A stretch of DNA of 34,262 bases from a virus. Taxonomy: Duplodnaviria > Heunggongvirae > Uroviricota > Caudoviricetes. Shown here in pieces: positions 1,424-32,365 of the stretch. Location of the stretch: IMG/VR virus record IMGVR_UViG_3300014208_000025, positions 244,967 to 279,228 of that record; one strand, written 5' to 3'. The notes beneath the pieces are model-generated. The model was given only the letters and a program-made list of their open reading frames with translations, was not told the origin of the DNA and did not search any database. Positions within the stretch are counted from its first letter, which is position 1, and each line of letters opens with the position of its first letter. The position numbers and the translations under genes are program-made.

Positions 1424-1838
1424 TGGTGGACGTGGGGGAAGTCGAATCCCCGTGTCCGTTATTACTAACATCCAGCACTACATGTTTGTTTCATTTTTGA
1501 TTTCGGTGACTGTGTGGAACGAACAAACCACGTTAATCACCTATGTTCTTAGTTATCTCGGATGTTGCCAAGAACCGAATTTACATCCTATCCCTCTGTT
1601 TTACGCCAGACTAACTTAGAGGAAGTCGGTCAATCTGACGGAATGGTTTCTTAGGCCATCGCGAACTCGGCTTCCATTGAAGTTACTTCCATTGCTGGAT
1701 TCACTTCAAATGAAAAGTCAAGGGTGCTTAAACGATTTGGTTTAGCATTTGATTTTTGTCATCTTTTTAACGAGACCCGACGACGACCTCGACATGCTCT
1801 GGGTGCCTATAATATCGGGTCGATACCAGTACACGCCC
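1424..1838 (-). ncRNA. ssrA: tmRNA (transfer-messenger RNA)
   Basis: 5' GGGCGUG pairs with 3' CACGUCC-A-CCA, including the G3-U70 alanine identity pair; T-arm with UUCGACU loop; internal tag ORF; 415 nt. Confidence 0.95.
1651..1746 (-). other. tmRNA tag reading frame (A)AKPNRLSTLDFSFEVNPAMEVTSMEAEFAMA*
   Basis: Resume codon GCT after AAAUCAAAU; open for 31 codons to TAA; hydrophobic Ala-ending C-terminus. Confidence 0.75.
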
Positions 1839-21086: not shown

Positions 21087-21284
21087 ATGAAACTAAGATT
21101 TAAGAAAGACGTGTCCGTAGATTTTCGTTCCAAACGTTTACAGGAGTGGGTTGACCATACCTTTCACAAAGATGAAATCGTGGAAGCTCATGTCATAACC
21201 TATGGCGGATGGTCTGATATGGCCTTTCCAAATGGTGATTTGGCGGAGTCTGTTAAATCAGATAGTTTTGAAGTTCTCGCTTGA
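21087..21284 (+). CDS. hypothetical protein, possible paralog of 33675-33968
   Basis: Own promoter; stop within the next TTGACA. Confidence 0.7.
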   Translation: MKLRFKKDVSVDFRSKRLQEWVDHTFHKDEIVEAHVITYGGWSDMAFPNGDLAESVKSDSFEVLA

Positions 21285-21397: not shown

Positions 21398-21409
21398 ATT
21401 TAATTTTGC

Positions 21410-21490
21410 CCGAGCGTCCCATAAGTGCCAGAAGGGTTTGTGGCAGTCTAAAACGGCCGGTGTACAACGGTTGAATAGCAGGGGACACGG
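21410..21490 (+). ncRNA. candidate multi-stem RNA
   Basis: GTCCC/GGGAC closing stem enclosing TGCCA/TGGCA and CGGCCG/CGGTTG hairpins. Confidence 0.45.
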
Positions 21491-21559
21491 TTCTGTTGAC
21501 ATGTAGGCAGACTCGTGATATCGTAGGTGGTTCAACTCCACGTCTCAGGCACCATTTTT

Positions 21560-24870: not shown

Positions 24871-25010
24871 AAACCCCAAAAAACAGACAAGACGAAGAAG
24901 ACGAATTGCCGGTTGACACCTTGGCTCAAGAAGTGGCCGAGTCACTTCCCGGCTATCAAGAATATCAGAAAGAAGCCCGTGGCGACTCTTTGAATTTCGG
25001 TGATTACTAA
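24867..25010 (+). CDS. small acidic protein (47 aa)
   Basis: ATGA overlap with the upstream gene. Confidence 0.55.
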   Translation: MKTPKNRQDEEDELPVDTLAQEVAESLPGYQEYQKEARGDSLNFGDY

Positions 25011-25053
25011 GAGAAATTACTTGACAATTATTTCGTTCGTGTTATGGTTGTAA

Positions 25054-25186
25054 TGGTAAAACATGGACAGCATGAACGTCCTGCTAACTCCGGAGTATGA
25101 AAGGTGGACATGCGTTCGATTGATTGAGGGTTGCTCCTCATGTGTTGAAAGATGATGGTTCGACTCCACTCCATGTTTTATCACCA
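25054..25186 (+). ncRNA. candidate tRNA-like or Y-RNA-like ncRNA (133 nt)
   Basis: Own promoter at 25021; 14-bp terminal stem TGGTAAAACATGGA/TCCATGTTTTATCA then CCA; T-arm TGG-TTCGACT-CCA. Confidence 0.65.
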
Positions 25187-25317
25187 ATTTCTTAAACAAA
25201 TCACTTGACTTAGCGGAAACTTATGTTAAGGTAACTCCATGATAAAGATTGGAACACAATTTCGGAACTATATCGAATACAACGCTCGTTGGGCGACTAT
25301 TAACATCCAATTTTGAT

Positions 25318-25512
25318 ATGGCACACTCACGCATTATCGTTAAGGTCAAGGATTGTATCGCCTACATTGAGGGATGTGGTTGGAAGTTCATCGGGCGCCA
25401 ATACGGTTCTTATTGGTTCAAGGGCAACAACGGCAAAACCAACATGGCCGGAAGTAACACCATTCCATTCACCTTGACCGAACTCCGCCACGCCTACAAT
25501 AACGGATGGTAA
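25318..25512 (+). CDS. hypothetical protein
   Basis: Likely start MAHSRI. Confidence 0.65.
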   Translation: MAHSRIIVKVKDCIAYIEGCGWKFIGRQYGSYWFKGNNGKTNMAGSNTIPFTLTELRHAYNNGW

Positions 25513-26124: not shown

Positions 26125-26190
26125 ATGTAACAGGGTATGAAAGCCCGAGGATAGGGGACCGGAGAGTGCGTTGATATCTTTAACGTTATC
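26125..26190 (+). ncRNA. candidate small RNA with AUAGGGGA loop, copy 2
   Basis: Promoter at 26093; leaderless ATG is followed directly by TAA; shares TGAAAG..CCG..ATAGGGGACCGGAG..TGCG with 17099-17163. Confidence 0.5.
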
Positions 26191-26416: not shown

Positions 26417-26470
26417 TAATAATTTCACAAAACAATTTGACAATTCTAAAAACAAGATTAGGGTATAGAC

Positions 26471-26737
26471 ATGAGTAAACACATAATTTGGGCAGAAATG
26501 GCCCGTAGAAAAGTCCAGTTTCATCCAAACGAATCTTGGGAAACCATTACTCTTTGGGGGTTGTTTGAATGGGGGTCCGTCAGTAAATTGATTAACACCG
26601 GTGAACTCCTAACCAATTACAGAAAAGAGAATCGGACGGTATGGGTCAGACCATCTAAAGAATCGTGGGAAACCAAAATCAAACCGTTGATTGACGGTTA
26701 TTCTCTTTCCGAATTGACTACAATGGCAGGTTGGTAA
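26471..26737 (+). CDS. hypothetical protein, leaderless
   Basis: TTGACA-N16-TAGGGT-N6-ATG. Confidence 0.75.
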   Translation: MSKHIIWAEMARRKVQFHPNESWETITLWGLFEWGSVSKLINTGELLTNYRKENRTVWVRPSKESWETKIKPLIDGYSLSELTTMAGW

Positions 26738-26788: not shown

Positions 26789-27613
26789 ATGAAATTATTA
26801 AAGTTTAGTGACGGAAACAGCAAACTACCAAAGGGTATAACAACTTTTTCGTTGCCGGCATCCTACTCATGTCCGGGAGCAAACGAGTGTCGTTCTCAAG
26901 CAGTTAAGACAAGTGAAGGATTCAGAATTAAAGATGGTCCTAACTGTCAATTCCGTTGTTTCGCCGCCATTGACGAAGTTCTTAAACCGAACGTCAGAGA
27001 ACAACGATGGCACAATTTCAACCTTTTGAAAACGTGTAAATCCACAGTTGAAATGGTGGAATTGATCGTTAAATCGTTACCGGCATCGGCGTTCAATTTA
27101 CCCGTGAGATTACATGTCAGTGGAGATTTTTTCTCGCAAATGTATTTTGATGCGTGGTTGGAAGTTGCTCGAAAGTTTCCCCAACGTATCTTTTACGGTT
27201 ACAGTAAATCGTTATTGGTATGGGTGGCTCGTAAAGACAACATGCCTCCGAATTTCAAATTGGTGGCTAGTCGAGGCGGAAAATGGGATAACCTAATTGA
27301 GACTCATAAACTCAGATCGGCCAAGGTGGTTTACAGTGAAGCCGAAGCAATCTCTCTTGGTCTGTCAATAGACCATGACGATTCATATTGTTACAAGGGT
27401 ACTGACGATTTTGCCCTACTCCTTCACGGCACGCAACCAGCCGGCAGTGCATCGGCCAAAGCGTGGCAGGAGTTGAAGAAAATTGGCAAGGGCGGCTACC
27501 ACAATCAGAAACGGGGCCGGGGTTGGGGCGGCAAGGATTACGAGGGTCAACCCCTCAAAAAAAACTATGGTAGGGGTACCCCCTCCCCCAAGGGTATGAA
27601 AGTTCTCGCTTGA
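26789..27613 (+). CDS. GP88-family phage protein
   Basis: GNSKL..FSLPA..SCPGA..C..CFA and VRLHVSGDFFS..Y..W..FYGYSKS pattern. Confidence 0.75.
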   Translation: MKLLKFSDGNSKLPKGITTFSLPASYSCPGANECRSQAVKTSEGFRIKDGPNCQFRCFAAIDEVLKPNVREQRWHNFNLLKTCKSTVEMVELIVKSLPASAFNLPVRLHVSGDFFSQMYFDAWLEVARKFPQRIFYGYSKSLLVWVARKDNMPPNFKLVASRGGKWDNLIETHKLRSAKVVYSEAEAISLGLSIDHDDSYCYKGTDDFALLLHGTQPAGSASAKAWQELKKIGKGGYHNQKRGRGWGGKDYEGQPLKKNYGRGTPSPKGMKVLA

Positions 27614-27643
27614 CATTTCACAAAACAATGTTACCTTGACGTT

Positions 27644-27817
27644 ATGAATAATACAATCAAACTGCCCAACGGTCACAAATGGGAAGAAGTTACTGCTGCA
27701 ACCGCATCTGAAACTTGGTTTCAATGTAATCGTTGTGGAGCGACTTTCATCCATGACATGATTGACGACTCCATTGAACAGGAAGCAGGCGATGAAAGTT
27801 GTGACGCTCAAGATTGA
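27644..27817 (+). CDS. small Zn-ribbon-like protein (57 aa), leaderless
   Basis: GHKW..CNRCG; own promoter. Confidence 0.6.
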   Translation: MNNTIKLPNGHKWEEVTAATASETWFQCNRCGATFIHDMIDDSIEQEAGDESCDAQD

Positions 27818-32278: not shown

Positions 32279-32365
32279 TGGTGGGCTCACAGGGAATCGA
32301 ACCCCGATCTGTCGTTTATGAGACGACGGCTCTACATCTTGCGAATACCATTGAGCTATGAGCCC
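32279..32365 (-). tRNA. tRNA with CAT anticodon (Ile2-like) and an enlarged D-loop
   Basis: GGGCTCA/TGAGCCC-A-CCA acceptor; GTCGT-CTCATAA-ACGAC anticodon arm; canonical T arm; 20-nt D-loop. Confidence 0.85.

Follow-up and report, generated by a model that had tools for sequence, protein, structure and literature searches.

Which product is made by a phage cassette that has a complete promoter but no start codon at the place where its neighbors begin their proteins? The question is raised by a locus near position 25,055 of the stretch of DNA analyzed here (34,262 nucleotides, hereafter the window), which forms the last 34 kb of a 279-kb jumbo-phage record in IMG/VR (IMGVR_UViG_3300014208_000025). 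An initial annotation, made from the letters alone, had seen a promoter-driven 133-nt RNA with paired ends, a T-arm and a 3' CCA that is not a tRNA. The follow-up analysis indicates that the locus is very probably a real and functional gene for a structured RNA, because a homolog on metagenome contig L025 keeps the promoter, the start point, the fold and compensated pairs, and has no ORF in common with the window.

The phage and its cassette array

The same region is also present on metagenome contigs of ~351 kb. The phage record holds ~45 tRNA-type genes (>40 tRNA genes), a gene for a CCA-adding-type enzyme and a true tmRNA at 1424-1838, recognized by both RF00023 and ARAGORN. The tRNA cluster lies on the minus strand at 212.9-240.6 kb of the genome, and the RNA gene on the plus strand at 270.0 kb. 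The region around the RNA gene is an array of tiny cassettes with one promoter per gene and few terminators. In 33 of the 53 window promoters of the form TTGAC[AT]-16-TAnnnT an ATG or GTG follows exactly 6 nt past the -10, and because this spacing is fixed in those promoters, start sites can be predicted to the base. Most genes of the array thus appear to be leaderless, each with a promoter of its own.

The elements that bound the RNA cassette are:

25021..25048, plus strand: sigma-70-type early promoter (-35 TTGACA at 25021-25026, 16-nt spacer, extended -10 TGn-TATGGT with the -10 at 25043-25048)
25205..25232, plus strand: promoter of the next cassette (TTGACT-16-TAAGGT, leaderless ATG at 25239)

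The promoter of the RNA cassette matches the consensus at 10/12 positions and has the TG of an extended -10. Six nucleotides past the -10 there is no ATG but G25055, the first base of the terminal helix of the RNA, and by the rule of the array this base is the predicted transcription start. At L025:540-564 the same promoter stands at an equal distance, with the first G again 6 nt after TATGGT. We infer that a host-type RNA polymerase begins the RNA at G25055, which would make 5' processing unneeded. The description of the cassette as a promoter-driven, stand-alone RNA gene therefore holds. At the other end, no intrinsic terminator was called at the RNA cassette in the terminator prediction for the window; the spacer before the next cassette and its -35 are kept in L025, and the downstream genes differ between the two loci. 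The 3' end is presumably formed so as to leave an RNA with a predicted length of about 129-132 nt (~130).

Fold of the RNA

The window RNA was folded with the T hairpin enforced before the homolog was known. This fold, a four-way junction, has an energy of -39.9 kcal/mol versus -41.2 for the minimum free energy (MFE) structure, a gap of 1.3 kcal/mol; the MFE structure differs in the 3' half, and its z-score, taken alone, is modest (-2.4). The parts of the four-way junction are as follows, with RNA position 1 at G25055:

25055..25067, plus strand: 5' strand of helix P1 in the acceptor-stem position (RNA 1-13, pairs with 25170-25182, RNA 116-128)
25070..25113, plus strand: P2 (RNA 16-59), a large arm where a tRNA has its D arm, with GCAUG/CAUGC as closing helix
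25115..25149, plus strand: P3 (RNA 61-95), a long hairpin where a tRNA has its anticodon arm
25156..25168, plus strand: P4, the T-loop hairpin UGG-UUCGACU-CCA (RNA 102-114)
25170..25182, plus strand: 3' strand of P1 (RNA 116-128, pairing probability 0.8-1.0)
25183..25186, plus strand: single-stranded ACCA tail, a discriminator-like A plus CCA that is not conserved

P1 comprises 13 bp at pairing probabilities of 0.8-1.0, with one G.U (G25056.U25181). The terminal stem had been given as 14 bp, and its first 13 stand; the 14th pair, T25054-A25183, would begin upstream of the predicted start and is lost in L025. The argument that a single G-U favors the plus strand was well founded, in that the G.U pairs fit only this strand: on the other they become C.A, so that the plus-strand RNA is taken to be the folding species. 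The closing helix of P2 (probability 0.9) is predicted in separate folds of both homologs, and the arm contains the palindrome CUCCGGAG; its inner 3-bp hairpin (33-35/40-42) is unsupported, the change of G41 to U in L025 breaking a pair. P3 has a base helix (61-66/90-95) and an apex, UGAGGG/UCCUCA, whose loop of 4-6 nt is not of the anticodon type. Among the internal stems proposed earlier, GAGG/CCTC survives as this apex, but AGCA/TGCT (probability 0.07, and broken in L025 by G29 to A) and ACATG/CATGT (probability 0.00) do not.

P4 finishes one nucleotide before the 3' strand of P1, which confirms the T-arm noted there as TGG-TTCGACT-CCA (25156-25168); it is invariant in L025. Read directly and compared with the phage's own tRNAs, it fits the tRNA T-arm consensus GGUUCGANUCC. 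The stem has 3 clean pairs only; admitting one A.C would lengthen it to 5 positions (100-104/112-116). Formation of P4 is favored because P3 rules out a competing pairing of 74-79 with 107-112. The connectors of the four-way junction measure 2, 1, 6 and 1 nt, as against 2, 1, 4-5 and 0 in tRNA.

Other tRNA hallmarks are missing. The RNA has no D-loop GG, and among all hairpins with stems of at least 4 bp and loops of 6-9 nt there is none of the anticodon type (5-bp stem, 7-nt loop). The sole 5-bp/7-nt candidate, at 63-79, contains three G.U pairs and an A at the U33 position, and it clashes with the covarying P3. The initial annotation was thus right in saying that this is not a tRNA and has no anticodon arm, a point on which ARAGORN and Rfam (both silent) agree.

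Compensated pairing and selection in the homolog

The element at L025:571-699 shares promoter, start point and fold with the window RNA, and in this one homolog the stems are maintained through compensatory changes. Of its 11 substitutions relative to the window, 8 lie in pairs that stay paired, 1 breaks the inner hairpin of P2 and 2 fall in loops. In P1, A7-U122 becomes G-C, G1-C becomes G.U and G2.U becomes G-C, and G11/G12 are deleted jointly with their partners C117/C118 (a GG/CC co-deletion), which leaves 11 bp instead of the 13 bp of the window. In the base of P3, C63-G93 becomes U-A, G64.U92 becomes G-C and U66.G90 becomes U-A. The covariation thus comes from two distinct sequences, between which two pairs changed on both sides, four changed on one side only and one co-deletion occurred. 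Under the fold chosen beforehand, 8 consistent changes have P=0.0023 in a permutation with random placement of the substitutions, whereas the rival MFE fold of the window accommodates 5 (P=0.23). The four-way junction is L025's own MFE structure. The MFE fold of the 3' half in the window was rejected in favor of P3 plus the T hairpin, since the pattern of substitution favors the latter.

The same alignment bears on selection. The RNA differs at 11/123 aligned positions (9%), as against 29/102 (28%) in the flanking non-coding DNA (Fisher P=2e-4), and three core blocks (P2, the P3 apex and positions 94-116) together differ at only 2/92. P2 has 2 substitutions in 47 nt, and the P4 hairpin and the P3 apex are unchanged; all three are conserved without covariation, and because no pairs vary there, the case for their pairing is energetic, together with the ruling out of the competing structure. 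On this sequence comparison the RNA is under purifying selection, which contradicts decay or chance. The fast change of P1 and the P3 base, with compensation, beside the near-invariance of P2, the P3 apex and the T-loop region suggests that the former are structural clamp helices and that the invariant parts may be contact surfaces.

Coding potential

The window has a 30-codon ORF on the plus strand (25063-25155) and a 60-codon ORF on the minus strand. No ORF of at least 20 aa is common to the window and L025 on either strand. The first ATG of the plus-strand ORF is lost in L025 and a stop follows codon 15; the substitution behind the stop, C63 to U, is also one of those compensated in the pairing of the RNA. 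The minus-strand ORF is split in L025 by indels of -2, +1 and -2. The ATGs of the RNA cassette do not stand at the transcript start, unlike those of the 33 leaderless genes. By these sequence criteria the gene is non-coding, and the short ORF seen at first is not kept in L025.

The 3' end and the likeness to tRNA

The 3' CCA had been counted among the features of the RNA. It is indeed present in the window (ACCA, 25183-25186), but it is not conserved: the tail is UUCA in L025, where the discriminator-like A has become U and a U-rich tract lies directly past the helix. The first two P1 pairs also differ, G-C/G.U in the window against G.U/G-C in L025, and the first three pairs in the window are G1-C, G2.U and U3-A, with no G3.U70. 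The T-loop would lie 16-18 bp from the 3' end, a spacing that differs by 2 bp in L025 and is 12 bp in tRNA. Several enzymes rely on positions at the acceptor end for recognition or as a ruler, namely aminoacyl-tRNA synthetases, the CCA-adding enzyme, RNase P and RNase Z. Two reviews deal with enzymes of this kind (PMC4919913, PMC9976931). Because the distance to the T-loop is both off and unconserved, recognition by enzymes that measure it is disfavored, and because neither the tail (discriminator and CCA) nor the two outermost pairs are kept, an acceptor-end function is unsupported. A CCA at one given offset arises by chance with odds of ~1/64, and the feature was picked post hoc; most simply, it would be a lineage-specific or chance feature. 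What keeps an acceptor function barely alive is the CCA-adding-type enzyme of the phage, together with the CCA on all tRNA-type matches in a genome scan.

That scan sought a T-loop hairpin, a perfect stem and N-CCA in the phage genome; since CCA was demanded, every tRNA-type match carries it and the count of tRNAs is a lower bound. It recovers the phage tRNAs, the tmRNA and the RNA gene, which alone has a stem >8 bp. In 40 dinucleotide shuffles of the 279-kb genome there were 90 matches with stems of 7-11 bp and none with at least 12 bp. By our own calculation, the 10-base T-arm match GGTTCGANTCC is expected by chance in a 132-nt RNA at ~1e-4.

Searches with models of known RNAs were uniformly negative. 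No Rfam family reaches its gathering score, the check that had been recommended for YrlA and tRNA in particular; RF00005 gives nothing at E<=10 over 24900-25350, and a cmscan of all 4227 families of Rfam 15 at E<=10 yields only a spurious 9.6-bit match on the other strand. ARAGORN, with and without its intron option, finds nothing at the RNA gene, and at lowered thresholds it makes spurious calls only. All in all, we regard it as slightly better than an even chance that the RNA is derived from a tRNA, as distinct from being a close mimic of one.

Search for relatives

Relatives of this RNA are rare. A search of 50,697 phage records by megablast and blastn returned nothing or chance matches of at most 27 nt. 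Exact and degenerate patterns gave no homolog in IMG/VR, five matches of one search being ordinary tRNAs of an unrelated phage, and none in GTDB genomes, where one match was a GC-rich coding region. Three metagenome copies are 100% identical to the window RNA, ACCA included, and are uninformative. The neighboring genes were more widely distributed: homologs with 54-85% protein identity occur on about a dozen other contigs with no RNA adjacent. Relatives of the upstream 124-aa gene (60-81% identity) have no RNA beside the gene, nor have those of the downstream 64-aa gene. It was the upstream 47-aa gene that led to the one informative homolog, on L025.

A covariance model (R1) built from the window RNA and L025 was run over 111 kb of related loci, over the entire phage record and over 17 related IMG/VR records, and recovered nothing beyond the two copies it was built from; the IMG/VR records are fragments centered on a terminase or GP88-family gene, and their silence means little. 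The RNA gene is therefore known from two lineages only, and the phage genome has no paralog of it. Nor does the phage genome contain, elsewhere, a complement of at least 13 nt to any part of the RNA. A role as a primer-binding site was rejected on the same ground, as neither the 3' end nor any other part has such a complement in the genome.

Comparison with known RNAs

Phage RNAs that are shaped like tRNA without being tRNAs have been known since the species 1 and 2 RNAs of T4. The nearest known analog of the window RNA, judged by resemblance of predicted features, is T4 species 1 RNA (rnaC). Both are phage-encoded, of the stable type, not tRNAs and ~130-140 nt long (rnaC ~139 nt); in both a T-loop hairpin directly precedes the 3' strand of the terminal helix, and neither belongs to an Rfam family above threshold. 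The order of arms is common to the two, in predicted folds only: terminal stem, large arm, hairpin, T arm. They differ in that rnaC, by its annotation, is a member of a tRNA cluster, with whose tRNAs it is transcribed and processed jointly, whereas the window RNA lies outside the cluster, in an early cassette region, and has its own promoter with the predicted start at position 1; rnaC has a canonical 5-bp T stem and a weak terminal helix, the window RNA a 3-bp T stem and a 13-bp clamp. No homology is detectable: R1 with filters off scores 6.6 bits, E=1.2, against rnaC (L024:2903-3004), and what it ranks highest in the T4 tRNA region, below significance, are tRNA genes. In a 2022 article, species 1 RNA is classed as late and the function of T4 RNAC and RNAD is still described as unknown (PMC9697503).

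With canonical tRNA (RF00005) the RNA has in common the T-loop consensus, similar junction connectors and, in the window, N-CCA. Unlike tRNA, it has no anticodon-type hairpin, its terminal helix is 11-13 bp instead of 7 bp, its arms are 44 and 35 nt, its T stem is 3 bp and its CCA is not conserved. Among the features by which a tRNA is recognized it thus has the T arm beside the 3' strand, and lacks the anticodon arm and the 7-bp acceptor stem with CCA. The tRNA-like domain of tmRNA likewise has an acceptor-type helix and a T arm with no D or anticodon arms, but the window RNA has no G3.U70, no tag frame with a resume codon and no pseudoknots; RF00023 and ARAGORN are silent on it, and SmpB was not found in the phage record.

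The initial annotation had pointed to YrlA, a bacterial Y RNA that joins a long helix of both ends to a module with a tRNA-like T-loop. The window RNA does have a long end-to-end helix and a tRNA-like T-loop module. Its P1, however, is a perfect duplex without what we take to be the bulged Ro-binding motif of Y RNAs, and, unlike YrlA, its free ends sit on the acceptor-like helix. The likeness goes no further, as there is no Rfam match at E<=10 and no Ro60/TROVE gene (PF05731) in the 279-kb phage record (79% complete), the search being confined to the phage, so that a Ro60 encoded by the host is conceivable; controls for PF05731 were matched in D. radiodurans and B. thetaiotaomicron. YrlA and its Ro60 protein (Rsr) are the subject of Chen et al. 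2014 (PMC4201824).

In sum of these comparisons, the RNA is a phage tRNA-shaped stable RNA of a kind known from T4, and its promoter-driven, clamp-closed form is new with respect to the open-access literature searched, in which no RNA of like shape with these two features is described.

Proposed role and alternatives

The account that best explains the whole, which we put at somewhat less than an even chance, is that a stand-alone early gene encodes a tRNA-derived, trans-acting, protein-binding small RNA. The gene would produce a small non-coding RNA in the form of a four-way junction closed by a clamp helix, and would most likely descend from one of the many tRNA genes of the phage. Decoding would have been lost with the anticodon loop, and the acceptor-end features would no longer be maintained. 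Contact surfaces would be provided by P2, by the apex of P3 and by the T-loop region, which together would present a tRNA-elbow-like shape, and the fast-evolving terminal helix would merely clamp the RNA and shield its ends. The target could be a tRNA-handling protein of host or phage, whether an enzyme that processes or modifies tRNA or a defense protein directed at tRNA, which the RNA might sponge or scaffold. We commit, tentatively, to a trans-acting, protein-binding RNA with an elbow-like shape, a possibility to which we give well under even chances; that it serves as a protein sponge or scaffold is likewise possible without being probable. Since the phage genome has no complement of at least 13 nt elsewhere and the invariant folded core is large, we lean toward a protein partner over an antisense role. 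An anticodon-nuclease decoy, as first imagined, is implausible for an RNA with no anticodon loop. It is unlikely, although conceivable, that this is the first characterized member of an undescribed class of expanded, anticodon-less, tRNA-shaped jumbo-phage RNAs that are expressed early, each from a promoter of its own, and that offer an imitation of the tRNA elbow to sponge a tRNA-directed immune effector of the host or a tRNA-processing enzyme.

T-loops occur in many non-tRNA RNAs, including RNase P, riboswitches and rRNA. The main rival, which we rate as somewhat unlikely, builds on this: the RNA would be structured and trans-acting but have no functional link to tRNA, its T-loop being a mere tertiary module that aids folding, and it would work by base-pairing of a conserved loop or as a ribozyme- or riboswitch-like fold, with the palindrome in P2 as a possible site of dimerization. 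Such an RNA would have no need to conserve CCA, acceptor-end sequence or helix length, the Rfam tRNA model would be expected to remain silent, and the near-invariant core blocks look as loops do that contact something. It would leave to coincidence a 10-base T-arm match (expected at ~1e-4) that directly precedes the 3' strand of P1, and junction connectors that copy those of tRNA, in a phage with >40 tRNA genes available as a source; nor does the phage genome offer a complement of at least 13 nt with which the loops might pair. The opposite alternative, a working acceptor-type tRNA mimic, would be matured to a CCA end that is aminoacylated, or would be a substrate or decoy for enzymes of the CCA end (the CCA-adding enzyme, nucleotidyltransferase toxins of the MenT/AbiE type, EF-Tu). 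We consider it improbable. The helix of the window is followed by ACCA, the phage tRNA genes found in the scan (which required CCA) all encode CCA, and the CCA-adding-type enzyme of the phage could repair a CCA-less copy such as that of L025. Yet the UUCA tail of L025, its U discriminator and its altered pairs 1-72/2-71 indicate that identity positions are free to vary, G3.U70 is absent, and the helix is 4-6 bp longer than the acceptor/T stack of tRNA and not conserved in length.

The remaining alternatives deny the RNA a free role or an RNA role altogether. Punctuation by tRNA-like elements is known in organelles and from MALAT1/mascRNA. Two papers treat such punctuation (PMC8457004, PMC1920247). 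A cis-acting, tRNA-shaped signal of this sort, serving to process or terminate and thereby separate cassette transcripts, would suit a region with one promoter per gene and few terminators, and the U-rich tract right behind the helix in L025 could be read in the same way. We think it quite improbable: a full promoter of its own begins the predicted transcript exactly at the helix, which suggests a dedicated RNA; a conserved core of ~90 nt far exceeds what a cleavage signal needs; and the downstream gene, which has its own promoter, differs between the homologs. A small protein (an ORF of 15-30 codons), a decaying tRNA pseudogene or a chance structure is highly improbable. The window does offer its 30-codon plus-strand and 60-codon minus-strand ORFs, and in the first 15 codons past the second ATG the two substitutions are synonymous or conservative, but no ORF is common to both loci (first ATG lost, stop after codon 15, minus ORF split) and the ATGs lie away from the transcript start; a pseudogene or chance fold is contradicted by the compensatory changes and the strong purifying selection.

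The RNA also lends itself to experiment: a clean single-gene cassette, a predicted start at position 1, a fold supported by compensation and a clear split between fast-evolving clamp helices and invariant surfaces make it tractable for pull-down and structural work. Models of the aminoacylation type merit no priority, as the CCA is not conserved. To our knowledge, replacement tRNAs and repair enzymes are so far the chief known elements of the conflict between phage and host over tRNA. If it is true that the invariant surfaces bind a host protein that handles or cleaves tRNA, the gene would add an RNA-based layer to this conflict.

Other expanded RNAs of the phage

Several other RNAs of unusual length were observed in passing. 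The same phage has at least two further cloverleaf-like RNAs, one of 147 nt at window positions 21408-21554 and one of 151 nt within the tRNA cluster (genome 240051-240201); each combines acceptor stem, T arm and ACCA, and neither is related to the RNA gene. A relative carries a 145-nt RNA with acceptor stem, T arm and ACCA behind its homologous 124-aa gene (L019:728-872). No sequence similarity links these expanded RNAs to the RNA gene. The phage also has several tRNAs of 86-98 nt and a tRNA(CAU) with a 14-nt insert in the D-loop. The expanded RNAs hint at a repertoire rather than a single oddity.

Promoters and probable small RNA genes

Transcription across the window (1-34262, both strands) is laid out with one promoter per gene, and most of the genes are leaderless. 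Among 53 promoters of the form TTGAC[AT]-16-TAnnnT found on the two strands, 33 place an ATG or GTG exactly 6 nt past the -10 hexamer, as in the following examples (window coordinates):

25205-25241, promoter with leaderless start site
26437-26473, promoter with leaderless start site
27610-27646, promoter with leaderless start site

The other 20 lie mostly in front of the tmRNA or of cassettes devoid of an ORF. Several promoters of this type lack a start codon where one would be expected downstream, and many small RNA genes appear to lie in the early region of the phage. ORF-less cassettes of this kind include:

26125-26190, plus strand, ORF-less cassette
17065, 17175, 12593, 12078, 13884 and 31692, further ORF-less cassettes

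Expanded tRNA-shaped RNAs

A second expanded tRNA-shaped RNA, of 147 nt and unrelated to the ~130-nt RNA, is found in the window at 21408-21554 (plus strand). Its acceptor-type stem of 7 bp (including one C.A) and a 2-nt connector lead into a large three-way arm and then a long hairpin; next comes a T arm (GTGG-TTCAACT-CCAC), which is followed by ACCA. Upstream lies an 80-nt RNA begun by a promoter at 21281, and a promoter-like site (21496-21524) is present within the 147-nt RNA itself.

Beyond the window, the tRNA cluster in the full 279-kb phage record (G000:C1) holds two elements on the minus strand:

G000:C1:240051-240201, minus strand, 151-nt RNA
G000:C1 about 240207-240392, minus strand, T-arm/ACCA element directly preceding it

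The acceptor stem of the 151-nt RNA is a perfect helix of 7 bp; the RNA also has ACCA and a T arm of the canonical 5 bp. None of the tRNA callers recognised it. A suppressor-type tRNA(CUA) is nearby (240539-240614).

L019, a related contig, also carries an ORF-less cassette, located downstream of its homologue of the 124-aa gene and ordered as ~94-nt RNA, long hairpin, 145-nt RNA:

L019:556-649, plus strand, ~94-nt RNA, ends closed by a 12-bp helix
L019:728-872, plus strand, 145-nt RNA whose acceptor-type stem has 6 bp and whose T arm has 5-6 bp, with ACCA

A fold z of -3.1 accompanies the 145-nt RNA in this cassette, and an unusual tRNA lies downstream on the opposite strand (L019 1221-1297).

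Unusual tRNA, tmRNA and nucleotidyltransferase

Three further features of the phage are a tRNA, a tmRNA and a CCA-adding-type enzyme:

Window 32282-32365, minus strand, tRNA(CAU) whose D-loop carries a 14-nt insertion
Window 1424-1838, minus strand, tmRNA (122.9 bits)
G000:C1:132565-132987, plus strand, PolyA_pol/CCA-adding-type nucleotidyltransferase within a 493-codon open frame

The tRNA(CAU) was missed by ARAGORN, although it scores 59.5 bits with Rfam. The tmRNA has its own promoter (1853-1880), a short leader and a predicted tag of 31 residues ending in ...AEFAMA. No SmpB gene was found in the phage record.
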